Positions 3,056 to 61,529 of a stretch of DNA of 64,000 nucleotides are shown here, one piece after another. Every line of letters begins with the position of its first letter. Position 1 is the first letter of the stretch. The notes beneath the pieces are model-generated. The model ran no database searches and was not told where the DNA came from. It saw nothing but the letters and a program-made list of their open reading frames with translations. The DNA comes from an uncultured Acidobacteriota bacterium (GTDB lineage Bacteria; Acidobacteriota; Thermoanaerobaculia; Thermoanaerobaculales; Sulfomarinibacteraceae): NCBI GenBank assembly GCA_963823445.1, contig CAWGLT010000014.1, forward strand, positions 199,472 through 263,471. Reading direction: 5' to 3'. The position numbers and the translations under genes are program-made.

Positions 3056-5708
3056 ATGAAGACTCAACCGACCAGAAGCTGGATGATCGCGGCCGTCATG
3101 GTGGCGCTCGTCGCGGCGACCGCCGCCGCCGACGACCGCGACTTCCTCCGCGAACGCGCGGCCAAACCCAACATCCTCATCCTCCTCGACACCTCGACAT
3201 CCATGATGGGAACCTCCGAGATCGCCCCGGAGTTCTCGAGGTGGCAGGGCCCGGCCATCGTGAACTCGGGCATGCTGCCGGGCGCCGGCGACGACCCGCG
3301 ATCGCGCATGGGCATCGCCAAGGCGGTGCTGCGGAGCTTCCTCCAGAGCGTCACCGATGCCAACTTCGCCCTCGCGGGCTATCAGTACGAGCTGCCCAAG
3401 GATGCGAGCAGCAACATCGTCAACCCCTACCCGGCGGAGCACTGGACCTACCAGGCGCTCAGCGCCGATCGCTTCGGGTTCCTCGAGGAGAACTATGTCT
3501 ACCGCGTCGGTTGGGCGGAAAAGACCTACAACGGCGCGACGGCGGCGCTGCCCATGACCAACCCGGCGGACTACTCGCGGAGCATGCTCTTCGGCTACAA
3601 CCCCTACTTCGACCCCGACCCCGCCGGCACCGGCTACGTCCCCCCGTTCGAGCGCTACGGCCCGATCCTGGCGCCGGATTTTCACCCCTGGAATCCCTAC
3701 GCCCTCCTGCCCATCTATCTCATGCGCAACTGCGAGACCGATGACCTCGACGGCCTCGGCAAGGACTGCGGCCTCAGGGTCTTCCCCTACTACACCTCCC
3801 TCGACAGCCTGGGCGCCACGGTCTCCCATTCCTGGACATCGAGCTTTGTCAACTGCGACCCCCTGACCGCCCCCGACGCCGGCGGCACCGACAACGGCTG
3901 CCGCTCGAGCTGGAGCGTCCTCGATGTCCCCGCGAGGCAGGTCACCCAGTGGGTCCGGCGGGCCCATCTCGAGGTCCCGACTACCGTTTCGGGTGCGGCC
4001 AACCACCCCATCGGCGAGGACACCGCGGGCAGCATGTCGGGCAACTGGACGATCGCCGATCCCAACCCCGGGGCCGAGAACTACGATCTCGGAGCGACCG
4101 CCGACGACGCCGACTACGACGGCGATGAGAGCCTCGACTGGCTCATGCGGGTCAACATGGTGGAGGAGCGGAAATCGCGCCTCTGCGCGCTGCCGGCGAC
4201 CCCCACCCCGACCTTCACGCCGACCGACACCCCGACCTTCACCCCGACCTTCACGCCGACCTATACCCCGACGCCGATTCCACCGCAGTGTTCAGACATC
4301 TTCGTCGACGATCTCTACTACCTCGACGAGTACCGGGTGCGGATCGACATGGTCCGCAACGACAACGCGATCCACCAGGCGGTGCACCGGCAGACCAACG
4401 TCGTCTGGGAGGACCTGTACGACCCGGGCCAGTACCTCAACTTCATGAACTTCAACAGCTTCCCCGGCAACTACTACGACATCGACGACTACGACCCCGA
4501 CACCCTCGCCGTCGTCGACGTGCCCTTCGACCCGGGCGTCGGGACCATGCTCACCGTCCGGTGGGACGGCATCCCCGGCGGTGCGTACATCGCCGGCACC
4601 ACCACCGTCACCCTCACCTTCGAGTATCCGGCATACGGCCTGACCTGCCCCCCAATCACGAAAACCGTCAACCGGGCCGCGCCGACGCCGACATCGACCC
4701 CGACGGCGACCGCGACGCCGACATCGACCCCGACCCCGGTTCCGGCGGACTGCACTGACATCGAGTTCGGTCCGACGCTCCGGGTTCAAAACTCCGATCA
4801 ACTCATCGACGAGCTCCGCAACAACTCGGTCTTCCCGGCATATGTCACCAATACCGTATTCGCCTGGCAGCCCACGAAGCCGCCCACGCAGCTCAACACC
4901 CCGATGGTCGACTTCATCAGGCTGGACGGACAAACAGCCTACTACGGTGGGAACGCCACGACATCGCCAGTCGTTCGCAACGATGGTTACCCGGGTGCGA
5001 ATCTCGTCCGGCGTACGATTCCCGCGACCAGCACCCGGATCTGGCGGGCGGATCTCGACTACGTCTGGGCGCCTCCTCGGGGGCTCCACCGGGTCGACCT
5101 CACCGTCTTCCTCCCCGGTGCCGGCGCCGGCGGAGCAGATCTGACCTGCCTGGTTTCCGCCGACTATGACCTGTCAACACCCCGACGCCGACCAACACAC
5201 CGACGATCACCAACACCCCGACCAACACCTTCACGCCGTCGAACACGCCGACGCCGACGAACACCTTCACGCCGTCGAACACCCCGACGAGAACCTTCAC
5301 GCCGACGATCACCAACACGCCGACGGTCACCAACACGCCGACGCGGACCAACACCCCGACGAACACCTTCACGCCGTCGAACACGCCGACGCGGACGAAC
5401 ACCTTCACGCCGTCGAACACGCCGACGCGGACGAACACCTTCACGCCGTCGAACACGCCGACGCGGACGAACACCTTCACGCCGTCGAACACGCCGACGC
5501 ACACGCCGACGAACACGGCGACGTTCACGCCGACGCACACGCCGACGTTCACCCGGACCTTCACGCCGTCGAACACGCCGACGTTCACGCCGACGTTCAC
5601 GCCGACGCATACGCCGACGTTCACGCCGACCTTCACGCCGACCTTTACGCCGACGCATACGCCGACCAACACCCCCACGCCGACTCCGACGAATACGCCT
5701 GACCTCTA
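3056..5708 (+). CDS. Large secreted vWA/PilY1-N-like protein with Thr/Pro linkers and a 176-aa TP-rich C-terminal tail (needs a 1-nt frame correction at 5180-5183)
   Basis: Signal peptide [25 protein letters not shown] and MIDAS-like [14 protein letters not shown]. Two Cys-bracketed modules are each preceded by TPTPTFTPT-type linkers read in frame 2. From 5179 the same nucleotide motif only gives TPT in frame 1, which ends at TAG 5706-5708. Uncorrected frame 2 gives an RRRT-rich tail ending at 5731. Confidence 0.6.
5179..5705 (+). repeat. Coding tandem repeat (Thr/Pro-rich; 36-bp unit ACGAACACCTTCACGCCGTCGAACACGCCGACGCGG)
   Basis: Three perfect 36-bp copies at 5359-5466, plus a fourth (5467-5502) differing only at its last two bases, within a longer degenerate ACNCCGACN periodic tract. 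Encodes [12 protein letters not shown] repeats. Five of the six frames are open here. Confidence 0.85.
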
Positions 5709-5727: not shown

Positions 5728-9989
<4,262 letters not shown>

Positions 9990-14042: not shown

Positions 14043-14133
14043 ATTCTTAATTTTGAATTCTCAATTCTTAATTTCCATCGCACATTCGTCACAGACCCAT
14101 GCGATGGTAATTAAGAATTGAGAATTGAGAATT
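14041..14133. repeat. AT-rich heptad-armed palindromic intergenic element, copy B
   Basis: Left arm 14041-14082 is AATTCTT AATTTTG AATTCTC AATTCTT AATTTCC ATCGCA. Loop is 17 nt. Right arm 14100-14133 is TGCGATGG TAATTAAGAATTGAGAATTGAGAATT. The inner 26-27 nt pair almost perfectly. Lies between convergent genes and starts inside the TAA stop of the M16 gene. Confidence 0.85.
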
Positions 14134-32491: not shown

Positions 32492-32546
32492 GGACGAAGG
32501 TGTGAGCCCCATCGCAGGGGCTGCAGAAAATAGGTTCGAAATCCAA

Positions 32547-32571
32547 CCCCGCGGCTTGCCGCGGGGTTTTT
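32547..32571 (+). terminator. Rho-independent terminator after secF
   Basis: CCCCGCGG-CTTG-CCGCGGGG followed by TTTTT. Confidence 0.8.
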
Positions 32572-32588
32572 CAGTTTCGTTTTTTGTA

Positions 32589-32625
32589 TTTTTTCGGCTC
32601 CGCGCATCGCGCGGGGCCGAAAAAA
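32589..32625. terminator. Second, bidirectional-type hairpin (T6 stem A6)
   Basis: TTTTTTCGGCTCCGCGC-ATC-GCGCGGGGCCGAAAAAA has 17-nt arms with one G-U pair and A/T runs on both sides. Confidence 0.6.
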
Positions 32626-32661
32626 TAGGAGGGGCTTGACCCCGAAACGTACAATGATGGG

Positions 32662-46392: not shown

Positions 46393-47736
46393 ATGTTCTC
46401 GAAGATCCTGATTGCCAACCGCGGCGAGATCGCCGTGCGGATCATCGCCGCATGTCGTGAGCTCGGGATCGCCACCGTCGCGGTTCATTCCGAGGTCGAT
46501 CGCGAGTGCCTCCACGTCAAGCTCGCGGACGAGTCGGTCTGCATCGGCCCCGCGCCATCGACGGATTCCTATCTCAACGTGACCAATGTCATCTCGGCGG
46601 CCGAGATCACCGGGGCGGAGGCGATCCACCCCGGCTACGGCTTCCTCGCCGAGAACGCGAGGTTCGCCGAGATCGCCCAGGAGTGCGGTCTGACCTTTAT
46701 CGGCCCATCGGCCGAGGCGATCCGGCTCATGGGCAACAAGGCGGCCGCCCGGAAGGCGGCGGCCGAGGCCGGGTGCCCCGTCCTGCCGGGTTCCGAGGGC
46801 GCCTTGACCAGCGTCGCACAGGCTCTCGTTCTCGCCGGGGAGATCGGCTACCCGGTGATTCTCAAGGCGTCGGCCGGAGGCGGCGGGCGGGGCATGCGGC
46901 TCGCCTGGAATGACAATGAGTTGAAAAACGCCTACGCGATGGCCTGGAACGAGGCCGAAAAGGCCTTTGGCGATCCCACCCTCTATCTCGAGAAGTTCGT
47001 CCAGAACCCGCGCCACATCGAGTTCCAGATCCTTGCCGATGGACAGGGCCGGGTGGTCCACCTCGGCGAACGCGAGTGCTCGATCCAGCGCCGGCACCAG
47101 AAGATCCTCGAAGAGGCGCCCTCGGTGGTCCTCGACGACGAGCTTCGAGCCGAGATGGGCCGGGCCGCGGTGGCGGTCGCCCGGGCGGCGAAATACGTCA
47201 ACGCCGGGACCGTCGAGTTTCTGCTCTCCGCCGACAGGACCTTCACCTTCATGGAGATGAACACCAGGATTCAGGTGGAGCATCCGGTGACCGAGCTCGT
47301 CACCAGCGTCGATCTCGTGTGTGAGCAGTTGCGGATCGCCGCCGGGAAACCCATGTCGATCCCCAAGCGCCGGCAGATTCAGCCGAAGGGGCACGCCATC
47401 GAGTTTCGCATCAACGCCGAGGATCCGGACACTCTGCGACCGTCACCGGGCCTCATCACCCACCTCGCCCTGCCCGGCGGGCCGGGAGTCCGGGTCGACA
47501 CGCACATCTACTCCGGATACACGGTTCCGCCCACCTACGACAGCCTCATCGCCAAGCTCCTGGTGCACGGCAGGAACCGGAAAGAGGCCATCATCCGCGG
47601 CCGCCGCGCGCTCCAGATGTTTCAGATCGAGGGCATCAAGACCTCGATTCCGCTCCACCTCCGGATCCTCGACGATCCGGACTTCCAGGCCGGCGATTTC
47701 TCGACGGCATTCATGGAGCGGTACGTCTCGAAGTAA
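46393..47736 (+). CDS. accC: Acetyl-CoA carboxylase biotin carboxylase subunit
   Basis: [20 protein letters not shown]-type start, [32 protein letters not shown]. Confidence 0.97.
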
Positions 47737-47872
47737 TTCTCAATTCTCAATTCTCAATTCTTAATTCTTAGTTTTGAATTTTGAATTTGAATGACATCGC
47801 AGCGAGTGAGACGGCGCCGACGGCGGCCGGATGCGATGCAATTAAAAATTCATAATTCAAAATTCATAATTT
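47735..47872. repeat. AT-rich heptad-armed palindromic intergenic element, copy C
   Basis: Left arm is (AATTCTC)x3 AATTCTT AATTCTT AGTTTTG AATTTTG AATTTGA ATGACATCGCA. Core is 30 nt and GC-rich. Right arm is TGCGATGC AATTAAAAATTCATAATTCAAAATTCATAATT. Starts inside the TAA stop of accC. Confidence 0.8.
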
Positions 47873-49158: not shown

Positions 49159-51567
49159 GTGACGGTGCGAAAAATCATCCCGATCGTGTTGCTGTTCGTA
49201 TCGGTCCTGGCGATCGCCGATTCGGCGCCGGCCCAGGACCCGGAGAGTTTCGAGGCGCGGGCCGAGTACCTCCTTCGCCGGATGGACTCCGGTCTGCTCC
49301 CGACACCCATGTTGGTCTCCATGCTGAAAGACCCGTATTCGGAGACCCGGATCCTGGCCGTCCGAGTGGTCGCCTCGAGCGGCGACCCGAGTCAGAGCGC
49401 GCTGCTGCCGGAGTACTTTCGCGATCGGGATTTCCGAGTCCGGTACGAAGTCATGGTGGCGGCCGGACGATTGGGCGCCGACGGGCGGGAGCTCGCGCTG
49501 GCCGGTCTCCGCGACGAGGTCCCGATGGTTCGTCAGGCGGCGGCCTGGGCCGCGTGCCACGGCGGGGTGGAGGCCCTCGGCCCCCTGATGGCCGTCATGG
49601 AGCAGGAGCCCGATCTCGGAGTTCGAACCACCGCCGTCGCCAATCTGTGGCGGTTCGGCGAGGCCGATTGGGAGACCCACGCGGCCTCGGCGGCGCGAAG
49701 CGGCGATGCCCAGCTTCGCCGGGCGGCGGCGTATTCGCTGGCGCGGAGTGGAAGCACGCGAGCGCGCGCGGCTCTCAGAAGCCTCGCCGCCGATGCCGAG
49801 CCCGTGATCCGGGCCACCGCCATCGCGGGTCTTCGTCGCGCGGCCCTTGCGAAGGACGACCTCGCGATCGTCATGACCGCCCTCAACGACGGCGACGCGC
49901 GGGTCCGGACCGCCGCCTGCTGGGTTCTCGCGGAACAGCCCGAGCCGGCTCTCCCCGAGGCTTCGGCGGCCGCCGTTGCAGCGATGTGGGCGCCGACCGA
50001 GCCGCAGCTCGCAGCGATGGCGCTCCGGGCCGCGGCGGCGCGCAGGGAGATCGGCAGCGACGCCGGCCTGCTCGAGATCGTCGGATCCGATGAGCCGTGG
50101 TTGCGGGCCGAGGCCTTCTCGGCCCTCGCCCGAAGAGCCGGTGACGGTCTCGGTGAGGTGGCGAAAGAGTGGTTTTCGAGCGAGGAACCGTGGCGGCGCC
50201 GGGCGGTGGCGGCGGCGGCGCCGATGCTCGGCGAAGCATGGGAGAAGAGGGTTGCCGCGGCTGACGAGGCCGCCGTCCGGCTCGCCTGGCTCGAGAGCCT
50301 CGGCCCCGATGCCGTCGCCGCGCGAGTCGAGGTTCTTCGACGACTCGTCGCCGGCGATCCGGACCCGATCGTGCGAACGGTGGCGCTCAATCATCTCGGC
50401 GATGCCGGCGCCGGCGGGAGCTTCGATTCGCTGCTCGAGCTCGCCCGATCATGGGTCTCGGACGAGATGCCCGATGCCCGGGCCGCCGCTCTGACCGCGG
50501 CTCTGGCGGCCGCCGAGAGCGAGGACGAGCGGATTCTGGTGATGCGGCGAGCCGTCGACGACCGCAACCCGGCGGTGACGATCCTCGTCATCAACGCGGC
50601 GCGGAGCGCCGGGCTGCCCGCCCGGTCGGCCGAACGAGAGCTCCGTCACGACCAACCGTGGTACCTCGAGCTCGTGGAGTGGATGCGCGAGGACCACTGG
50701 CTCGATGTCGCCACCGATCGGGGCACCTTCCGGATCCGTCTCGAGACCACGGACGCGCCGATCACCGCACGTGAGATCTTCGATCTCGCGGAGGCTGGAT
50801 TCTACGACGGTCTGACCTTCCACCGGGTGGCTCCGAACTTCGTGGTTCAAGGCGGCGATCCGCGGGGCGACGGTTGGGGCGGCCCGGGATTCATCGTCCC
50901 CGACGAACCCGCCTTCCGTCCCTTTGACTCGTGGCGGGTCGGCGTCGCGACGTCGGGACCCAATACCGGCGGCAGCCAGTTCTTCGTCACCCTGATGCCG
51001 GCCGACCACCTCGTCGGCCACTACACCAATCTCGGCGATGTGACCGCCGGGCGCGAGGTCTTGCCGCGTTTGAGGGTCGGTGACCGGATCCGTGGGATCG
51101 AGGGTTTCAGCGGCGACGAACCACCGCTGCCGGAGCCGTTTCTCCTCGGCCCCGTCGACTGGGACGAGCTCGCCCAGCTCTCGGGCTGGCAGGAGGAGTA
51201 CGACGCCGGCGAGCCCGATCCGGCGGCGCTCGAGCGGCTCGGTTCGGCGACCGGGAGCTATCGGATCGTGAGCGTTCTCGGGTCGTGGTGCCACGATTCC
51301 CGACGCGAGATTCCGCGCCTGGTCAAGGTCCTGGACCAGCTCTCGACGCCGGTCTTTTCCCACGAGATGATCGGCGTCGATCGCACCCGGAGGATCGATG
51401 ATCCCGAGGTGGCGTCGTTCGCCGGGATCGAGCGAACCGTCGATCTCGTGGCGACGATTGCAGTCTTCGACGACGCCGGCGTCGAGCTCGGCCGGGTGGT
51501 CGAGACCGCGGAGAAGCCCATCGAGGAGCTCCTGATCGAGTTCATCGCCCCCGTCGAGGGCTGGTAA
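49159..51567 (+). CDS. HEAT-repeat / cyclophilin-type PPIase / thioredoxin-like fusion protein
   Basis: Signal-like N-terminus. HEAT-like repeats (…DEVPMVRQAAAWAACHGG…). Cyclophilin core FHRVAPNFVVQGGDPRGDGWGGPGF...GGSQFFVTL. C-terminal thioredoxin-like VLGSWCHDSRREIPRLVKVL (CxxS). Confidence 0.8.
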   Translation: MTVRKIIPIVLLFVSVLAIADSAPAQDPESFEARAEYLLRRMDSGLLPTPMLVSMLKDPYSETRILAVRVVASSGDPSQSALLPEYFRDRDFRVRYEVMVAAGRLGADGRELALAGLRDEVPMVRQAAAWAACHGGVEALGPLMAVMEQEPDLGVRTTAVANLWRFGEADWETHAASAARSGDAQLRRAAAYSLARSGSTRARAALRSLAADAEPVIRATAIAGLRRAALAKDDLAIVMTALNDGDARVRTAACWVLAEQPEPALPEASAAAVAAMWAPTEPQLAAMALRAAAARREIGSDAGLLEIVGSDEPWLRAEAFSALARRAGDGLGEVAKEWFSSEEPWRRRAVAAAAPMLGEAWEKRVAAADEAAVRLAWLESLGPDAVAARVEVLRRLVAGDPDPIVRTVALNHLGDAGAGGSFDSLLELARSWVSDEMPDARAAALTAALAAAESEDERILVMRRAVDDRNPAVTILVINAARSAGLPARSAERELRHDQPWYLELVEWMREDHWLDVATDRGTFRIRLETTDAPITAREIFDLAEAGFYDGLTFHRVAPNFVVQGGDPRGDGWGGPGFIVPDEPAFRPFDSWRVGVATSGPNTGGSQFFVTLMPADHLVGHYTNLGDVTAGREVLPRLRVGDRIRGIEGFSGDEPPLPEPFLLGPVDWDELAQLSGWQEEYDAGEPDPAALERLGSATGSYRIVSVLGSWCHDSRREIPRLVKVLDQLSTPVFSHEMIGVDRTRRIDDPEVASFAGIERTVDLVATIAVFDDAGVELGRVVETAEKPIEELLIEFIAPVEGW

Positions 51568-51586
51568 AACCCCACCGGGTCGGTTT

Positions 51587-52810
51587 TGTAGCGCCGACGT
51601 CCCGTCGGCGATGGTGGTAAGCCGTCGCGGGTTGGTCACATCGCCCACGAGACGTGGGCGGTACAAGGCGCGGTCGAGATGTTGTAGCGCCGACGTCCCG
51701 TCGGCGATGGTGGTAGAGCCGTGGCGGGTTGGTCACATCGCCCACGAGACGTGGGCGGTACAAGGCGCGGTCGAGATGTTGTAGCGCCGACGTCCCGTCG
51801 GCGATGGTAAGCCGGCGGGTTGGTCACATCGCCCACGAGACGGGGCGGTCAAGGCGCGGTCGAGATGTTGTAGCGCCGACGTCCCGTCGGCGATGGTGGA
51901 GAGCCGTGGCGGGTTGGTCACATCGCCCACGAGACGCGGGCGGTACAAGGCGCGGTCGAGATGTTGTAGCGCCGACGTCCCGTCGGCGATGGTGGAAAGC
52001 CGTGGCGGGTTGGTCACATCGCCCACGAGACGTGGGCGGTACAAGGCGCGGTCGAGATGTTGTAGCGCCGACGTCCCGTCGGCGATGGTGGAAGCCGTGG
52101 CGGGTTGGTCACATCGCCCACGAGACGTGGGCGGTACAAGGCGCGGTCGAGATGTTGTAGCGCCGACGTCCCGTCGGCGATGGTGGTAAGCCGTGGCGGG
52201 TTGGTCACATCGCCCACGAGACGCGGGCGGTACAAGGCGCGGTCGAGATGTTGTAGCGCCGACGTCCCGTCGGCGATGGTGGAGAGCCGCCGCGGGTTGG
52301 TCACATCGCCCACGAGACGTGGGCGGTACAAGGCGCGGTCGAGATGTTGTAGCGCCGACGTCCCGTCGGCGATGGTGGTAAGCCGTGGCGGGTTGGTCAC
52401 ATCGCCCACGAGACGCGGGCGGTACAAGGCGCGGTCGAGATGTTGTAGCGCCGACGTCCCGTCGGCGATGGTGGTAAGCCGTGGCGGGTTGGTCACATCG
52501 CCCACGAGACGCGGGCGGTACAAGGCGCGGTCGAGATGTTGTAGCGCCGACGTCCCGTCGGCGATGGTGGAGAGCCGTCGCGGGTTGGTCACATCGCCCA
52601 CGAGACGCGGGCGGTACAAGGCGCGGTCGAGATGTTGTAGCGCCGACGTCCCGTCGGCGATGGTGGTAAGCCGTGGCGGGTTGGTCACATCGCCCACGAG
52701 ACGTGGGCGGTACAAGGCGCGGTCGAGATGTTGTAGCGCCGACGTCCCGTCGGCGATGGTGGTAAGCCGTGGCGGGTTGGTCACATCGCCCACGAGACGC
52801 GGGCGCTACA
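51587..52810. repeat. Tandem array: 13 copies of a 96-bp unit made of two inverted REP-like hairpin motifs (BIME/REPIN-like)
   Basis: The landmark GTTGGTCACA recurs at 51631, 51728, 51819, 51913, 52009, 52104, 52200, 52296, 52392, 52488, 52584, 52680 and 52776. Unit = CATCGCCCACGAGACGYGGGCGGTACA + 17-nt linker + TGTAGCGCCGACGTCCCGTCGGCGATG + ~25-nt linker. Confidence 0.9.
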
Positions 52811-52863
52811 ATCGGCAGGGTCGTCGACGGTTGCGATCAACGGAGAAACTGGAGAGGCCAAAG

Positions 52864-53841
52864 ATGCCGGAAGTAGCCATCACCGCCGAGTTGCCGGGAC
52901 GAGCCATCGAGTGGATCGAAAAGGAGTGTCTCATCCGGCTCAACAGCGGGGTCCAGATCACCGATGAGGCCAGGCTCATCGATTTCATCGGATCGGCCGA
53001 CGCGGTGCTCACCCTTCTCGCGAATCCGGTGACCGACCGCGTCCTCGGGGCCTGCCGCGGTCTTCGGGTCGTCGGCAACTGCGCGGTGGGCTTCGACAAC
53101 ATCGACCTCGAGGCCGCCCGCCGCCGGGGCGTCTGGGTCACCAATACGCCCGATGTCCTCACCGAGGCCACCGCCGATCTCACCTGGGGTCTCATCCTCG
53201 CGGTCACCCGGCGACTGGGTGAGGCCGAGCGGCTCCTCCGCGCCGGGCGCTTCCACGGCTGGGCCCTCGACATGCTCCTCGGATCGGGGCTCCAGGGGCG
53301 GCAGCTCGGCGTGATCGGCTACGGCCGCATCGGCAGAGCGGTTGCGCGGCGGGCCGCGGGTTTCGGCATGTCGGTGGCCTACACCGCCAGGGAAGAGCAC
53401 GTCGACCCTGATCCGCCGGCGATCTTCATGCCCCTCGAGGAACTGCTCTCGACGAGCCACGTGGTGTCCCTCCATACGCCGATGAGCCGGGCCAACCGCC
53501 ATCTCCTCAACGAGGAGCGGCTGCGCCGGATGCCGGTGGGCGCTTTTCTCATCAATACCGCCCGCGGCCCGCTGGTGGACGAAGCAGCGTTGGTCCGGGT
53601 GCTCGAGGACGGCCACCTCGGGGGCGCCGGGCTCGATGTCTTCGAGGAAGAGCCGGCGGTCCACCCGGGCCTCCTCGAGCGTGAGAACGTGGTTCTGCTG
53701 CCGCACATCGGTTCGGCGACGGAAGAGACCAGGGCCGCCATGGCCGAGCTCGCGGCGAGGAACATTCTCGCGGTCTTAGCCGGCGAGGAACCCCCCACCC
53801 CGGTCGTCCGACCCGCGGACCGGGGCCGGCAGGGTACTTAA
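52864..53841 (+). CDS. D-isomer-specific 2-hydroxyacid dehydrogenase (glyoxylate/hydroxypyruvate reductase-like)
   Basis: NAD-binding LGVIGYGRIGRAV, INTARGPLVDEAAL, LLPHIGSAT. Start taken at MPEVAITAEL, because the tracked ORF runs into the repeat array. Confidence 0.85.
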   Translation: MPEVAITAELPGRAIEWIEKECLIRLNSGVQITDEARLIDFIGSADAVLTLLANPVTDRVLGACRGLRVVGNCAVGFDNIDLEAARRRGVWVTNTPDVLTEATADLTWGLILAVTRRLGEAERLLRAGRFHGWALDMLLGSGLQGRQLGVIGYGRIGRAVARRAAGFGMSVAYTAREEHVDPDPPAIFMPLEELLSTSHVVSLHTPMSRANRHLLNEERLRRMPVGAFLINTARGPLVDEAALVRVLEDGHLGGAGLDVFEEEPAVHPGLLERENVVLLPHIGSATEETRAAMAELAARNILAVLAGEEPPTPVVRPADRGRQGT

Positions 53842-53850
53842 GAGACGCAG

Positions 53851-54010
53851 GGCCACCACGCGGAGAAACCGCAGATCACGCAGATGGACGCAGATTCCAT
53901 CGCACCATCGCAAGGTTGAACCGCAATGAGCGCGAAGACCATCCATCGCAAAGATGCGCAAAGCCATCGCAATAGTGAGTGGGTCGCGCGTAGCTTGGGG
54001 GTCGTCTGAC
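53851..54010. repeat. Intergenic CGCAGAT / CCATCGCA repeat cluster
   Basis: CGCAGATCA CGCAGATGGA CGCAGATT is followed by CCATCGCACCATCGCA...CCATCGCA...CCATCGCA. Shares the CCATCGCACCATCGCAA block with 61375-61392. Confidence 0.65.
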
Positions 54011-54121
54011 TTCGTGGTGGTGCCGTCGCGACAGGAACGACTCTGAAGGGCAGGCTGGAAGCCCGCCCCCACCATCATCGCAGCGGGTTGACAATCCGCG
54101 GATCGGGATGTGCGGCGGCGC

Positions 54122-54176
54122 GTGCCTGGCTCTCTTTTCGTCCGACGAAAAGGTGCCTGGCACCGCTCCCATCGCG
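54122..54176. repeat. DR-palindrome-DR element (GTGCCTGGC ... TTCGTC C GACGAA ... GTGCCTGGCAC CGCTCCCATCGCG), copy 1
   Basis: Same architecture and orientation as 59370-59432. Confidence 0.6.
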
Positions 54177-57082: not shown

Positions 57083-58315
57083 GTGACTGCTGATCTCGTT
57101 TGGGTGGCTCTCTGCCTCGTGGGCTCCGGTTTCTTCTCCGCCTCGGAGACGGCTTTGTCGTCGCTGCCGATCACGCGGCTGGAGGCCCTGCGCCACACGA
57201 GCGGACGGCTGACCCGCGCCGGGCTCGACCGCTGGGCGAACGAGCCGCAGGAGCTGCTCATCACCATCCTCGTCGGCAACAACCTCGTCAACGTCCTCGC
57301 TTCGGCTCTCGCCACCCGGATCGCCTATCGCCTCACGAATGAGGGCGGACTCGCCATTGTCGTCGGCATCATGACCCTGGTCATTCTGGTTTTCGGCGAG
57401 ATCACCCCCAAGACCCTGGCCCAGCGGAACGCGGTCTGGATCTCGGCGCGGGTGGCCCCGGTGCTGTATCTCCTCGACGTCGTGCTGAAGCCGGTGAACT
57501 GGGTGCTGGGCCTCTTGACCCGGCTGTTGTCGAGCGAGGGCAAAGCGGCTCTCCCGGTGACCGAGGAGGATCTTCTCTTCATGCTGAAGCTGGCCCACCG
57601 CCACGCCGAACTGGGGCGCGAGGCGCGGATGATGATGGAGTCGGTCCTGCGTTTCCACCGCGCCGTCGCGCGCGAGGTGATGATCCCGCGGACGATGGTG
57701 GTGACCGTGCCGGTGAAGTGGAGCCTCGATGAGCTCAAGTCATTTGTCGCCACCACTCCGCACAGCCGATTTCCGGTGGTGGCCGATTCGCCCGACGACA
57801 TCGTCGGTGTCCTGCACGCGAAACACCTCCTGGATCTCGATTCGGCCGCGTCCTGGCGCAACCTCGTCGTGCCGCCGCTCTATGTCCCCGAGGGCCGGCT
57901 GCTGCCCGATCTGCTGCAGGATTTCCGCCGAACCGGCCAACATCTGGCGGTGGTCCTCGACGAGTACGGCGGGCTTTCCGGGATCGTCACCCTCGAGGAC
58001 GCCCTCGAGCTCGTCGTCGGCGAGATCGAGGATGAGTTCGACCGGAATCTCGAGACCGCGGTCGTCGAAGACGCCGAGGGTTGGCTCGTGCCCGGGTTTC
58101 TTTCGCTCAAGCGGCTCGAGGGTCTCGTGGGACGAGTCATCGCGGAGCCCGAGGACATCGAGTCCGTGGGTGGGCTCATCGCCGATCTCGTCGAGGGCGA
58201 GGTGACGCCGGGGACCAGGGCGCTGTGGGACCGGATCGAGCTGCGGGTCGAGCAGGTCGAGGACGGGCGAGCCACCCGGGTCCGGGTCGTGCGACCGCCC
58301 AAGCGCAAGCGATAG
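57083..58315 (+). CDS. CNNM/CorC/TlyC-type transporter (DUF21-CBS pair-CorC_HlyC)
   Basis: DUF21 N-terminus FFSASETALSSL, GEITPKTLA, CBS pair (REVMIPR...), and C-terminal CorC_HlyC-like domain. Confidence 0.85.
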   Translation: MTADLVWVALCLVGSGFFSASETALSSLPITRLEALRHTSGRLTRAGLDRWANEPQELLITILVGNNLVNVLASALATRIAYRLTNEGGLAIVVGIMTLVILVFGEITPKTLAQRNAVWISARVAPVLYLLDVVLKPVNWVLGLLTRLLSSEGKAALPVTEEDLLFMLKLAHRHAELGREARMMMESVLRFHRAVAREVMIPRTMVVTVPVKWSLDELKSFVATTPHSRFPVVADSPDDIVGVLHAKHLLDLDSAASWRNLVVPPLYVPEGRLLPDLLQDFRRTGQHLAVVLDEYGGLSGIVTLEDALELVVGEIEDEFDRNLETAVVEDAEGWLVPGFLSLKRLEGLVGRVIAEPEDIESVGGLIADLVEGEVTPGTRALWDRIELRVEQVEDGRATRVRVVRPPKRKR

Positions 58316-58340
58316 ATTCGAACCCTGATGGGCGGCTCTT

Positions 58341-58507
58341 GCAGCCCCGGCGTCCCGCCGGCGATGGCGGTGAACCGATGCGGGCAGGCAGCACACCTTC
58401 GAGACGCGGGCGCTCCAGGTTTGATTCCTTGGAGCGCCGGCGTCCCGCCGGCGATGGTCGCGAACCGATGCGGGCAGGCAGCACACCTTCGAGACGCGGG
58501 CGCTCCA
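58341..58507. repeat. Two ~77-nt REPIN-like doublets (period 90 nt), a variant of the array motif
   Basis: GGAGCGCCGGCGTCCCGCCGGCGATGGTCGCGAACCGATGCGGGCAGGCAGCACACCTTCGAGACGCGGGCGCTCCA occurs at 58431-58507. A near copy lies at 58341-58417. Confidence 0.8.
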
Positions 58508-58527
58508 AGGCGGCGATCGGACACGGA

Positions 58528-58977
58528 TCAGCCCGGAAGATGCTCGAGGTCGTCGAGGTCTTTGTAGCGACCGGCGGCGGTCTTGTTCAACCGAAGATCC
58601 TCCAGAGAGATCACGTTGACCGGGACGCCGTCGATGGTGTCGATGATCTTTCTCTGGAAGCACTCGCTAAAGGTGACGCCGGAAGCGTGGGTCATGACTT
58701 CGATTTTCATCGGAGGCACGCCGATTCTGACGACGCCGTCGTCGGCGCGAAAGAGCTGCGGTGAGATCTCTCCCGTGAAGCCGAACGCCCTCATGACACG
58801 GATCATCCTCTCGGCATTCTCGGGGGTGTTGGCGATCCAGACGTCCATGTCGAGCGTCGTTCGTGGATAGCCGTGATAGGCAACGGCGTAGCCACCGAGG
58901 AGGAGATACTCAACGTCGTGGTCGTTCAACGACCTCAAGAAGTCTTTGAAGTCTTGCGGAAGTTGCATCGAGCCCAT
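58528..58977 (-). CDS. Pol-beta superfamily nucleotidyltransferase-fold protein (toxin-antitoxin-like cassette member)
   Basis: NTase signature LLLGGYAVAYHGYPRTTLDMDVWI (GG...D.D). ~145 aa. Lower GC than neighbours. The true start may be ATG 58968. Confidence 0.6.
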   Translation of the reverse strand: MGSMQLPQDFKDFLRSLNDHDVEYLLLGGYAVAYHGYPRTTLDMDVWIANTPENAERMIRVMRAFGFTGEISPQLFRADDGVVRIGVPPMKIEVMTHASGVTFSECFQRKIIDTIDGVPVNVISLEDLRLNKTAAGRYKDLDDLEHLPG

Positions 58978-59158
58978 AGTTGAGCCTCCTCAGCATCTCG
59001 ACGGCTGCGATCCGTTCCTGGGGTGTTCTCGAGTGCCAGAAAGCGTCGTCGGAGCGGTCCGAATGCGACGTCAGCGTCAGCTCGTTCCGATTCAACCTCG
59101 GGAAAAGGCTCTCGTCGGCATTCGAATCATCGGTGGGTCGTGTGTCTGATTCGGACAT
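58910..59158 (-). CDS. Small hypothetical protein upstream of the NTase gene, overlapping it by 68 nt
   Basis: 82-aa ORF with acidic N-terminus and helical C-terminus (TPQERIAAVEMLRRLNYG...). Partner role is inferred from position only. Confidence 0.4.
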   Translation of the reverse strand: MSESDTRPTDDSNADESLFPRLNRNELTLTSHSDRSDDAFWHSRTPQERIAAVEMLRRLNYGLDATSARLQRLLEVVERPRR

Positions 59159-59260
59159 TGCGGGCTCCGATCGCGGTGTGGCGGCACGGGTTCCGTCGAG
59201 TCGATTCTACCGGAGATGCTGGTGGAACGCGGGTATTGCGGCCGGCGATGCAGACTTGTG

Positions 59261-59300
59261 GCGCCGGCGTCCCGCCGGCGATGGTCGCGAGCCGCTGCGG
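59261..59300. repeat. REP-like motif copy, direct repeat of 58434-58473
   Basis: GCGCCGGCGTCCCGCCGGCGATGGTCGCGAGCCGCTGCGG matches the copy at 58434-58473 at 38 of 40 positions. Confidence 0.8.
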
Positions 59301-59369
59301 TTTGGTTTCATCGCTCGCGGGGACGCGATCGCACCGGCCGCCCAAGTCGATCCGGGGAACTCGGAACGG

Positions 59370-59432
59370 GTGCCTGGCATCCGACGATTCGTCCGACGAA
59401 TCGTTGCGTGCCTGGCATCCCCTCCCATGGCG
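59370..59432. repeat. DR-palindrome-DR element, copy 2
   Basis: GTGCCTGGCAT CC GACGATTCGTC C GACGAATCGT TGC GTGCCTGGCAT CCCCTCCCATGGCG. Confidence 0.6.
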
Positions 59433-59743
59433 CTCCGGAAAGCTCGGAACCCAACCCCGGCCTTCTGGGCCGCCTCCGGCGACCCAGCGTCGCACGAGCA
59501 GCGTGGTCGCTCAGGTGGTCGATTGAAGGGTCTGCGACCACGCTGTTCGTGCGCCGGAGGCCTCCCCCTGAGCTTGGACATTAGATTTCGAGGCGCCGCC
59601 CGGGGGAGCCCGGCATCGGCATTGTGCGAGTCGGGTTGCGGCGCCGGGAGGTCGTTCCAGCACAATGCCGTGCCCGGCACGCCCGGTGAAGCGCGATCAC
59701 CTCGTGTCCCGGATCGGTTTCGGCCAACGGACACGGATCCGGG

Positions 59744-61261: not shown

Positions 61262-61529
61262 CAAGAGCTTCTCATCGCATGATTGAACCGCCAAGGCGCG
61301 GCCGAGACATCGCAGTTTTACCGCAAAGGACGCCAAGAACGCGAAGAACATCGCAAAGGACATCGCCTGATTGACCCATCGCACCATCGCAATCCCCACC
61401 AACCGGGCGCGACTACCAACACCCTAGTCAAACAACGTCTACGCGATGTGCGCGCCGCGATGGTTCTGCGTCTCTGCATCTCTGCGCCTCTGCGTTGAAC
61501 TGCGATGGCTGCGACGATCTCGCGCTGAA
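61262..61529. repeat. Intergenic repeat cluster: CATCGCA-rich left part, TCTCTGCG-rich right part ending in a 50-nt block
   Basis: CATCGCA-type motifs at 61262, 61298, 61350 and 61377-61392. The block CTCTGCGCCTCTGCGTTGAACTGCGATGGCTGCGACGATCTCGCGCTGAA lies at 61480-61529. Confidence 0.7.

Follow-up and report, generated by a model that had tools for sequence, protein, structure and literature searches.

The locus studied here raises the question of what kind of element fills a gap between two genes with 13 nearly identical copies of a palindromic unit: a cluster of mobile hairpin DNA, a minisatellite, a set of structured RNAs, or a coding repeat. The array occupies positions 51587-52810 (plus strand) of the window, by which we mean the whole 64-kb stretch of DNA from an uncultured Acidobacteriota bacterium that was analyzed. 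As originally predicted, it lies between the stop codon at 51567 of a gene encoding HEAT repeats and a cyclophilin domain (49159-51567, plus strand), which ends 19 nt before the array, and the start of a D-2-hydroxyacid dehydrogenase gene (52864-53841, plus strand), whose ATG is 53 nt past the array. The 325-amino-acid dehydrogenase product starting at 52864 has an exact match on record in an independent assembly, and an exact look-up of the HEAT/cyclophilin product returned no record.

The regularity of the array was established in several ways. Tandem Repeats Finder reported a repeat at 51586-52811 with a period of 96 nt, 12.8 copies, 96% matches, 1% indels, and a score of 2261. Moreover, TGTAGCGCCGACGTCCCGTCGGCGATG has 13 exact occurrences in the window compared to 0 expected from 100 shuffles, and CATCGCCCACGAGACGYGGGCGGTACA has 11 exact ones plus one with a single mismatch, where the thirteenth copy (unit 3) bears indels. 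These counts confirm the 13 near-identical 96-nt units at 51587-52810 that had been reported from reading the sequence, and the spacings of the landmark GTTGGTCACA (97, 91, 94, 96, and 95 nt, followed by 96 nt seven times) agree exactly with the earlier values. In the TGTAG register, the head-to-tail units measure 96, 97, 89, 96, 96, and 95 nt, followed by six units of 96 nt and a truncated last unit of 79 nt. Units 1 (51587-51682), 4 (51869-51964), 5 (51965-52060), 7 (52156-52251), 8 (52252-52347), 10 (52444-52539), 11 (52540-52635), and 12 (52636-52731) are each 96 nt long. Unit 2 (51683-51779, 97 nt) has one additional nucleotide in linker 2, unit 3 (51780-51868, 89 nt) has deletions in linker 2 and in the inverted hairpin, and unit 6 (52061-52155, 95 nt) lacks one nucleotide in linker 2; all units are on the plus strand. 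Hence, of the indels originally placed in units 2, 3, and 5, the first two are found as described, and the third falls in unit 6 rather than unit 5 in this register. Identity among units of the array is 96.8%, and variation is concentrated in linker 2 and in compensating stem positions. Variant strings showed no clear higher-order, multi-unit periodicity by eye, and Tandem Repeats Finder gave the period of 96 only.

Each unit consists of two 27-nt GC-rich hairpins in opposite orientation, separated by linkers of 25 nt (linker 2, tail-to-tail) and 17 nt (linker 1, head-to-head), so that hairpin starts alternate at 51 and 45 nt throughout, with the orientation string AbAb. Unit 9 illustrates this arrangement. 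Its forward A-type hairpin (52348-52374, plus strand) has a T-GTAG head, the stem halves CGCCGACG and CGTCGGCG around a TCC loop, and an ATG tail; linker 2 (52375-52399), the most variable part of the unit, is followed by the inverted B-type hairpin (52400-52426), whose minus strand reads TGTACCGCCCGCGTCTCGTGGGCGATG, and by linker 1, AGGCGCGGTCGAGATGT (52427-52443), which is invariant in the array. The forward hairpins of the array read GTAG, and the inverted hairpins read the array-private GTAC except for the last one, which reads GTAG. Correspondingly, GCGGTAC is present in 12 units and the edge unit retains GCGCTAC: truncated unit 13 (52732-52810, plus strand) is without linker 1, and its inverted hairpin ends in the family-typical GCGCTACA instead of the array-private GCGGTACA.

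Under DNA energy parameters, each 27-mer folds into a stem-loop of -10.4 to -10.7 kcal/mol (z about -5). The earlier claim that both motifs form stem-loops was borne out, with an 8-bp stem and 3-nt loop replacing the proposed 7-bp stem and 5-nt loop; the C variant of motif 1, one of the two 27-mers, folds more weakly (-6.4 kcal/mol). The minimum free-energy structure of a whole unit is a single long imperfect hairpin in which motif 2 pairs with motif 1 around the 25-nt linker (-25.2 kcal/mol as DNA, -45.2 and -42.9 kcal/mol as RNA; z -2.0 to -3.4). Types A and B are distinguished by stem position 9/19 and loop position 15. Their systematic differences leave 4-5 mismatches per 27 positions in the long hairpin and fall exactly where the local stems stay intact but the long hairpin gains mismatches. 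In an alignment of the wider family, the GTAG head is conserved in the proportions G 120/128, T 90/128, A 109/128, and G 119/128 among distinct sequences. Over 487 family copies, 96% of stem cells are Watson-Crick, and two stem positions show compensatory changes, with pair 9-19 being G-C in 282 copies and C-G in 197, and pair 10-18 being G-C in 245 and A-T in 188. Hairpin DNA of this selfish or semi-domesticated kind, termed REPs, has long been described in E. coli and Pseudomonas, and the 27-mers have REP anatomy: an imperfect palindromic stem-loop within the 20-40 nt range, with a 5' GTAG-like head at the foot of the hairpin, a GC stem of 7-8 bp, and an ATG tail. The array is accordingly composed of 13 tandem heterodimers (26 REPs), each pairing a forward A-type REP with an inverted B-type REP.

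Dispersal of these hairpins is extensive and almost entirely intergenic, as in high-copy extragenic REP families. Outside the array, the window contains three further units at two intergenic sites, namely two diverged units with a period of 90 between convergent genes (58338-58511, plus strand) and a single diverged unit (59257-59330, plus strand). In the genome collection, where motif counts are lower bounds, the motif was found in more than 100 blocks of 8 kb, nearly all from Acidobacteriota MAGs. Recurrence of the 27-mer elsewhere, on which the original prediction had laid weight, was thereby observed in the window and hundreds of times in Acidobacteriota relatives, with the same 45/51-nt spacing. 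At least 130 clusters are present among the matches listed, including 44 singlets and 37 doublets, with the longest array reaching 25 REPs, and arrayed REPs in relatives almost always show the 45/51-nt alternation among these matches. Isolated doublets are of both kinds, head-to-head at 45 nt and tail-to-tail at 51 nt, and periods of 59, 78, 89-90, 97, and 100-101 nt also occur in the family. In 61 blocks of 8 kb sampled from a single related Acidobacteriota genome (about 0.5 Mb), there are at least 340 REPs in 80 clusters, and at least 18 of the clusters comprise six hairpins or more. The REP clusters favor the 3' ends of genes: by crude gene calls based on GC3 selection of ORFs, the genes on either side of the 86 assessable clusters are co-directional in 43 cases, convergent in 28, and divergent in 11, and 4 clusters overlap a predicted CDS. 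We conclude that this REP family is dispersed through the intergenic space of an uncultured Acidobacteriota clade.

A second repeat was noted alongside the family. This undescribed structured repeat of ~330 nt is supported by covariation, is present in more than 100 copies, and is physically coupled to the arrays in relatives; one copy of the module is located in the window (59455-59730). Mosaics of REPs plus module, 1.3-2 kb long, were found in relatives and are absent at window positions 32492-32661. No clean target-site duplication was seen at the mosaic in the secF-relA gap of relatives.

Relatives also encode a transposase linked to the family. The 203-aa product of a RAYT gene at locus L012 (4304-4912, minus strand) scored 34 bits with Pfam Y1_Tnp and, against a cut-off of 80, 87.1 bits with NCBIfam NF047646; its sole PDB match was 4ER8, E. 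coli TnpA-REP (E 3.9e-10). REP units flank this gene on both sides, and its stop codon lies within a GTAG head. A second RAYT (L103, 85% identical) directly follows REPs that are syntenic with window positions 59257-59330, and a third (61% identical) comes after another, ~101-nt array of ~8.5 units. In the two relatives with L012 and L103, the RAYT flanked by the array's units is ~6 kb from the orthologous array site, and in a relative, the gap orthologous to 58338-58511, which follows the conserved upstream gene, is occupied by a RAYT with REP arrays flanking it. The position in the window that is syntenic with a relative's RAYT carries a different repeat, and no RAYT or remnant of one was detected in the 64-kb window by motif regular expressions, tblastn, or a 120-sequence profile HMM run over six frames. 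The array-richest relative likewise yielded no RAYT when its 61 sampled blocks were searched with the profile HMM. The suggestion that a RAYT flanked by these motifs might exist was thus realized in L012 and L103 and not within the window. Most of the RAYT homologues found sit on ~1-kb contigs, and homologue P0020 was not on record in an exact look-up. The cognate RAYT of relatives is itself flanked by arrays of the family's units.

We interpret the array as a BIME-type cluster of REPs whose family is linked in relatives to a RAYT, a Y1 HUH enzyme, and we assign this reading a probability of roughly 0.85. The GTAG heads, covarying stems, alternating types, dispersed family, and RAYT in relatives all support the BIME/REPIN-like interpretation first put forward for this locus. 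BIME-2 arrays of E. coli are tandem and locus-homogeneous, vary in number between strains, and flank the RAYT gene (PMC3333891). The array resembles BIME-2 (y/z2 REP pairs) and the REPtron in having two alternating REP types, a GTAG head, imperfect palindromes, and homogeneous tandem copies whose number varies between genomes, with the array-flanked RAYT occurring here in relatives; this is a likeness of sequence and arrangement. It differs from BIME-2 in its phylum (Acidobacteriota), its unrelated REP sequence, its shorter stem (7-8 bp) and loop of 3-5 nt, its 26 REPs in one array, alongside a relative in which ~0.5 Mb of sampled sequence contains at least 18 arrays with six REPs or more, its linkers that are as conserved as the REPs, and the lack of a RAYT in the 64-kb window. 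REPINs of P. fluorescens SBW25 are overrepresented inverted doublets that form tandem clusters with flanks beside RAYT genes and show long-term REP conservation (PMC3116915). Like them, the units here are two inverted REPs with a short spacer predicted to fold as one hairpin, arranged in ordered clusters of near-identical doublets. In contrast to SBW25, where the largest clusters comprise four REPINs or 12 REPs (PMC3116915), arrays here reach 13 doublets, and isolated 45-nt and 51-nt doublets both occur. The portion of the survey of GTAG-tagged REPs by Di Nocera, De Gregorio and Rocco (2013) that we draw on describes tandem-reiterated dimers, a bias toward gene 3' ends, and tyrosine transposases (PMC3733652). 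Within that portion, the superfamily shares with the array's family a terminal GTAG, a short opposite tail, large clusters of tandem dimers, and a tendency to lie between genes that are co-directional or convergent; the families it describes do not include this one or its array habit, and for Acidobacteria it gives only TIR-flanked tyrosine transposases and no REP families (PMC3733652).

Comparison of the orthologous intergenic region in relatives, which had been proposed as a check, showed the unit subtype of the array there with differing copy numbers. The site holds 13, 11, ~2.5, and ~1 units in four species, at least three of which retain the site-specific subtype at this single, presumably intra-operon position. 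The sequences show that a REP seed was present at the site before the four sampled species split, and that the array afterwards grew and shrank in place as whole units were duplicated in tandem or deleted. Private substitutions common to all units of an array were also found (L057, L087, and L076), which implies that arrays grow by local duplication, and the units of one relative are 96.4% identical within arrays compared to 92.8% between arrays. Duplication could proceed by unequal recombination, replication slippage, or strand transfer by the RAYT. E. coli TnpA-REP reportedly carries out strand transfer in vitro. Units of the window are 93.6% identical to those of L075 and 91.6% identical to those of L041. 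By contrast, the adjacent gene has identities of 63% (window-L075) and 76% (window-L041) at third codon positions, and its first and second codon positions are 91-95% identical in the same species pairs. The 92-94% identity of units compared to 63-76% at third codon positions shows constraint on the sequence of the 96-nt unit. The linkers are as conserved as the REPs, and such linker conservation is not predicted by a purely selfish model.

Local growth with array-wide private variants and variable copy number at one orthologous site would also be expected of a plain minisatellite (VNTR), in which slippage or unequal crossing-over multiplied a palindromic unit of 96 nt without a transposase and any likeness to REPs is incidental. 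The absence of a RAYT from the window and from the 61 blocks of the array-rich relative fits this explanation as well. However, at least 44 singlets and at least 37 doublets of the same hairpins occur at unrelated intergenic sites, so that slippage alone is insufficient. In addition, the hairpins bear the GTAG head, and REP-type arrays directly adjoin three RAYT genes of relatives, in two cases with units of the array's own family. We therefore regard a minisatellite origin as improbable. MIRU-VNTR loci resemble the array's family in being dispersed 40-100 bp intergenic tandem repeats with lineage-variable copy number; unlike this family, MIRUs are not palindromic doublets, have no Y1 transposase, and often contain small overlapping ORFs.

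The constraint on the units bears on another proposal, that they are repeated structured RNA genes or a cis-regulatory RNA held by host selection rather than by transposase-driven spread. Conservation of units between species equals that of first and second codon positions, the unit has a predicted RNA fold of -43 to -45 kcal/mol, REP clusters favor the 3' ends of genes, and the genes on both sides of the array point the same way, without a promoter-like site in the array or its short flanks and with only a weak terminator-like site just upstream. Yet a search of the window and 18 related loci with Rfam 15 at gathering thresholds gave no match, permissive settings returned only generic hairpins, far-sub-threshold matches to plant miRNA-precursor models, and a tRNA/tmRNA scan of the window was negative. 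Pattern scans found no sigma-70 promoter in the array and its short flanks and no intrinsic terminator in its units, the one weak terminator-like site being located just before the array; no unit has a promoter or terminator within it. Stem wobble mismatches in 487 family copies show no strand asymmetry (39 G-T, or G-U in RNA, compared to 36 A-C), such that neither strand stands out as the active one, and units occur in both orientations relative to neighboring genes. As a separate explanation, this proposal is very improbable, and an RNA role is in any case compatible with a REP/BIME element, such that the two are not truly alternatives.

Within the BIME-type reading, the array may be transcribed as part of a two-gene message. 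By analogy with intra-operon REPs and BIMEs of E. coli, its hairpins would block 3' exonucleases on the upstream mRNA, thereby shielding it, and may reduce the transcription that continues into the dehydrogenase gene, to a degree that depends on the number of copies; we offer this model tentatively and at less than even odds. It is doubtful, though conceivable, that the arrays are functional elements at the level of the host and not mere by-products of the transposase. On that view, maintenance of the subtype while copy number ranges from 1 to 13 implies that copy number could tune something, such as local DNA topology or how strongly the two flanking genes are expressed relative to each other, and the array and ~330-nt module could jointly make up a new composite system of Acidobacteriota, REP-linked and either RNA-based or mobile.

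Misassembly of a repeat, from which the copy number or the array itself would have arisen, was also weighed. The copy number of 13 comes from a single assembly of the exact locus, and the units with one-base indels could reflect long-read errors. Against this, the same period and architecture recur at dozens of loci in three independent MAGs from other samples, one of which is the 11-unit orthologous array. Furthermore, an independent short-read contig (Logan SRR16938648) matches 52784-53898 at 99.7% identity, which supports the right-hand junction, and it stops inside the last hairpin, as expected of a real long repeat in a short-read assembly. An artefact is therefore a remote prospect. A protein of 32-residue repeats, either free-standing or extending the dehydrogenase at its N terminus, is of negligible likelihood and we reject it. 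In its favor, three of six unit frames are stop-free, and ORFs can be drawn mechanically on the minus strand (259 aa) and on the plus strand (578 aa), the latter in the reading frame of the dehydrogenase. Against it, each frame is interrupted by one or more stops in the course of the array, the indels (+1, -7, and -1 nt) are not in threes and shift the frame such that no single peptide repeat spans the array, variation falls in one linker and compensating stem positions instead of third codon positions, family periods include 59, 78, 89-90, 97, and 100-101 nt, and the 325-aa dehydrogenase from 52864 is the product recorded independently. A CRISPR array was likewise rejected, because the repeats alternate in orientation and both "spacers" recur almost unchanged in every unit.

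To our knowledge, work on REP/BIME/REPIN-RAYT systems has been confined almost entirely to Proteobacteria. The array and its relatives extend the full REP syndrome, comprising GTAG hairpins, alternating heterodimers, tandem amplification, and an array-flanked RAYT, to uncultured soil Acidobacteriota, and 26 hairpins in an array with many arrays per genome exceed the textbook cases. Such arrays break short-read assemblies and so would have been overlooked, becoming visible only with long-read MAGs. They are consequently a source of assembly gaps and, at the same time, natural VNTR markers for strain typing. Finally, with units far better conserved than neighboring synonymous sites, the arrays provide a test case for selection on REP clusters.

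The 13 near-identical 96-bp units of the original prediction are real. Tandem Repeats Finder returned a single array at 51586-52811 (period 96, 12.8 copies, 96% matches, score 2261), and the 27-mer TGTAGCGCCGACGTCCCGTCGGCGATG occurs 13 times without mismatch in a motif count and is absent from shuffles. Its near reverse complement, CATCGCCCACGAGACGYGGGCGGTACA, was found 12 times at ≤1 mismatch, and a 13th copy, damaged by indels, lies in unit 3. The predicted landmark spacings matched exactly on recount, with unit lengths of, in order, 96, 97, 89, 96, 96 and 95 nt, six times 96 nt, and 79 nt for a last unit that lacks the second linker. The array occupies the whole gap between a HEAT-repeat/cyclophilin gene (plus strand, stop at 51567, 19 nt before the array start) and a D-2-hydroxyacid dehydrogenase gene (plus strand, ATG at 52864, 53 nt past the array end). 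Independent support comes from a short-read contig (Logan SRR16938648), 99.7% identical to 52784-53898, that starts within the last hairpin; it confirms the right-hand junction and shows that the repeat defeats short-read assembly.

Read with GTAG at its 5' end, each 27-mer opens with T-GTAG and closes with ATG, and between them a GC-rich stem of 7-8 bp encloses a loop of 3-5 nt; folding as single-stranded DNA gave a predicted ~-10.5 kcal/mol (z ~-5). Two types of repetitive extragenic palindrome (REP) alternate along the array, type A (stem CGCCGAC/GTCGGCG) forward and type B (stem CGCCCRC/GYGGGCG) inverted. The 17-nt head-to-head linker is invariant within the window array, and the 25-nt tail-to-tail linker is the most variable part of the unit. 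MFE prediction folds the whole unit into one long, imperfect hairpin whose loop is the 25-nt linker. The differences between types A and B are systematic and fall at positions where each local stem stays paired but the long hairpin gains mismatches, which argues that the local hairpins are the conserved structures and that a perfect long palindrome is avoided. Across the REP family, the 5' GTAG head is conserved, 96% of stem cells are Watson-Crick, and compensatory pairing is seen at two stem positions (G-C 282 versus C-G 197, and G-C 245 versus A-T 188).

As predicted, the 27-mer family recurs elsewhere, with three further, diverged units detected by a unit profile in the window (58343-58511 and 59259-59327, both sites intergenic) and hundreds of copies in relatives. 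A 24-nt core motif was scanned against one genome per species, and all counts are among the matches listed, nearly all of which fall in long-read MAGs of uncultured Acidobacteriota. The 8-kb blocks among these matches, together with the window, hold at least 487 REPs in at least 130 clusters, and almost all arrayed REPs in them keep a 45/51-nt alternation (sum 96). Among the matches listed, 44 clusters are singlets, 37 are doublets, and arrays reach 25 detected REPs. MFD03804.bin.1.249 contributes at least 340 REPs, grouped in 80 clusters, and its 61 blocks include 18 arrays with ≥6 REPs and 10 with ≥10. The window array is the largest among the matches listed, followed by arrays of 22, 20 and 18 REPs, and is not an outlier in size. 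By a crude gene caller, the 86 assessable clusters lie between co-directional (43), convergent (28) or divergent genes (11) or overlap predicted CDS (4); a 3'-end bias of REPs, as in these contexts, is reported in PMC3733652. The exact 24-nt core also occurs at L022, L029 (an Alphaproteobacteria MAG), L011, L044 and L068, in MAGs labelled Alphaproteobacteria, Acetobacteraceae, Jatrophihabitans and Marmoricola; in one of them four copies form an array of 59-nt period. These occurrences may reflect binning error, convergent sequence or transfer.

The predicted link to a REP-associated tyrosine transposase (RAYT) holds in relatives and not within the 64-kb window, where neither a motif search nor tblastn nor a profile HMM from 120 homologues found a RAYT. 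MFD09964.bin.2.45 encodes a 203-aa RAYT (locus L012, 4304-4912, minus strand) that scores 34 bits against Pfam Y1_Tnp and 87.1 bits against NCBIfam NF047646, 'REP-associated tyrosine transposase' (cut-off 80), contains HVH and Y-x3-NP motifs, and has E. coli TnpA-REP (4ER8) as its sole PDB match. Three REPs of the window-array family precede it, five 97-nt units follow it, and its TAG stop falls inside a GTAG head. The same arrangement, a RAYT flanked by REP arrays, was described as a 'REPtron' for E. coli (PMC3333891). This RAYT sits downstream of the ortholog of window gene 57083-58315, ~6 kb from the array, in a gap that keeps just two REP units in the window. A second RAYT, 85% identical, is on a JGI contig (L103) with an 84% alignment to window 58344-59214, and directly follows REPs corresponding to 59257-59330; a third, 61% identical, follows ~8.5 units of a different array (period ~101 nt) in MFD09779.bin.2.172. 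Metagenomes yielded 526 RAYT homologues at E ≤1e-10, most on ~1 kb contigs and several bearing the JGI name RayT. The window neighbourhood 58316-59743 is a 'REPtron' in relatives (L012 3700-5100, L103 1-2047) with the RAYT missing in the window; there the two REP patches are separated by a gene for a DUF6036 nucleotidyltransferase (58528-58977, minus strand), and a structured module fills the position held by the RAYT in L103. MFD09779.bin.2.172 also encodes a 340-aa protein (L053, 57-1076, plus strand) with a Y1 transposase domain, of a different Y1 family from RAYT, and a weak match, below the Pfam cut-off, to the DnaA C-terminal helix-turn-helix.

The orthologous intergenic site in three related species carries units of the same site-specific subtype (with stem GAC/GTC and linker AGGCGCGGTCGAGAT), as 11 units in MFD09964.bin.2.45, five REPs in MFD03804.bin.1.249, and a single doublet with an internal deletion in MFD09779.bin.2.172. 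This common subtype at differing copy number implies that the REP seed is older than these species and that unit number changed in place. Private substitutions are common to every unit of an array (e.g., at L057, L087 and L076). The inverted REP end reads GCGGTAC in twelve units of the window array and GCGCTAC in the edge unit, the latter being family-typical and also present in the orthologous array. Unit identity in one genome is 96.4% within arrays and 92.8% between them. The array-wide substitutions, family-typical edge unit and higher within-array identity argue for growth by local tandem duplication with homogenisation, edge units escaping, rather than by repeated insertion from a master copy. 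Duplication may have occurred by unequal recombination, slippage or RAYT strand transfer, by which tandem E. coli BIMEs were assembled in vitro (PMC3333891).

We conclude that the array is a REP array of the bacterial interspersed mosaic element (BIME) type, of a RAYT-associated family and enlarged in place; the REP anatomy, dispersed family and RAYT-flanking arrays in relatives support the BIME/REPIN-like interpretation. A plain minisatellite would leave both the dispersed singlets and doublets and the RAYT-flanking arrays unexplained. The exact copy number of 13 rests on one assembly, but an assembly artefact is unlikely, because three other assemblies show this architecture at dozens of loci and the right-hand junction is independently confirmed. 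Three of the six unit frames are open, as a protein-coding repeat would have it, but indels of +1, -7 and -1 nt leave no frame intact across the array, the periods in the family (59, 78, 89-90, 97 and 100-101 nt) are not multiples of three, and the 325-aa dehydrogenase starting at 52864 is the product on record elsewhere; we therefore reject this reading. A CRISPR was rejected because successive repeats switch orientation and the 'spacers' do not vary. For a known RNA family, Rfam gave no match in the window at gathering thresholds, and permissive settings brought only far-sub-threshold hits to plant miRNA-precursor hairpin models.

Between the window and MFD09964.bin.2.45 (L075), array units are 93.6% identical, and dehydrogenase codon positions 1, 2 and 3 are 90.8%, 91.4% and 63.4% identical; the corresponding values for MFD03804.bin.1.249 (L041) are 91.6% and 95.1%, 95.4% and 75.8%. 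Homogenisation cuts variation within an array yet cannot slow divergence between species, which implies that the unit sequence, including its linkers, is under purifying selection, barring unseen exchange between species. Its source could be transposase recognition, a protein-binding role or an RNA role.

The module is a ~330-nt structured repeat found in the window at 59455-59730 (plus strand, 73% identity) and also at L040 798-1197 and L098 873-1230. At least 127 copies of ≥150 nt occur in related-locus blocks, mostly of two related MAGs, usually directly 3' of an A-type REP or REP array, and also in tandem arrays of their own (periods ~342 and 426-459 nt). When 36 copies are aligned, 8 helices are supported: 98% of cells are paired, and 11 pairs show compensatory double changes versus 5.1 in shuffles (observed value reached by 0/500). 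G-U pairs conserved on the given strand give a hint of an RNA; Rfam gave no match. The secF-relA gap (32492-32661, 170 nt) contains two hairpins, the first (CCCCGCGG...CCGCGGGGTTTT) common to the window and relatives and the second (a 19-nt inverted repeat, 32587-32627) absent from relatives. Two relatives have a 1.3-2 kb REP and module mosaic in this gap (L039 1031-2386, L028 4694-6755), so that the gap differs by presence or absence of the mosaic, with no obvious target-site duplication.

Other repeats also populate the window. The octamer CCATCGCA, which resembles the REP tail CCATCGCC, occurs 16 times versus 3.35 expected (0/100 shuffles reach 16), mostly clustered in intergenic gaps (72-79, 14075-14107, 32509, 53897-53971, 61376-61391, 61501 and 63554). 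AT-rich short repeats (AATTCAAAATTAAG, AATTCTC and AATTAAAAATTCAT) lie in intergenic gaps of this 66% GC sequence (81-113, 14049-14133, 47735-47768 and 47840-47871) and include a 34-nt inverted repeat with inner ends CCATCGCA/TGCGATGG. A small palindromic element (54120-54165 and 59363-59425) has GTGCCTGGCA-like boxes around a CGACGA/TCGTCG-type hairpin; GTGCCTGGCA at ≤1 mismatch occurs 8 times versus 3.3 expected. The GC-rich imperfect palindrome GGGCAGGCTGGAAGCCCGCCC (54040-54075), different from the array REPs and resembling sequences beside modules in related loci, may represent a second REP-like family. Dense 12-, 18-, 24- and 36-nt repeats (CACGCCGACG-type) over ~1.4 kb at 4197-5667 and a (GGC)24 run at 9656-9728, inside a 1352-aa ORF (5728-9786), look like low-complexity coding repeats near pilin-like genes.

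Scanning the array region turned up no promoter-like site and a single terminator-like site, which is weak and lies just before the array; the two flanking genes are ~130 nt apart in a relative with a minimal site. Together with the 19-nt and 53-nt flanks, this arrangement makes it probable that one message covers both genes and the array between them. REP/BIME hairpins inside E. coli operons shield upstream mRNA from 3' exonucleases and attenuate downstream transcription. By analogy, the array hairpins would shield the HEAT/cyclophilin mRNA from 3' exonucleases and attenuate transcription into the dehydrogenase gene, and we give about a one in three chance that these are the main effect of the array. 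Alternatively, the array may act at the DNA level, such as by binding gyrase or a nucleoid protein, or may have no host role.

The array family shares all defining structural and population features of E. coli BIME-2, namely alternating orientation, two REP types, two fixed linkers, tandem copies that are homogeneous within a locus and variable in number between genomes at one locus, and, in relatives, arrays flanking a RAYT. The doublets fit the description of REPINs as inverted pairs forming one predicted hairpin, and isolated doublets of both 45-nt and 51-nt kinds exist. The arrays described here are longer than the published maxima for P. fluorescens SBW25, in which an ordered cluster has four REPINs and a REP cluster has 12 REPs (PMC3116915). 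The literature searched contained no description of this REP family or of REP arrays in Acidobacteria. The element is a large REP array of BIME-like kind, from an acidobacterial lineage in which arrays like it are plentiful. Noteworthy are the scale of the arrays, the strong conservation of their units across species, and the associated structured module.
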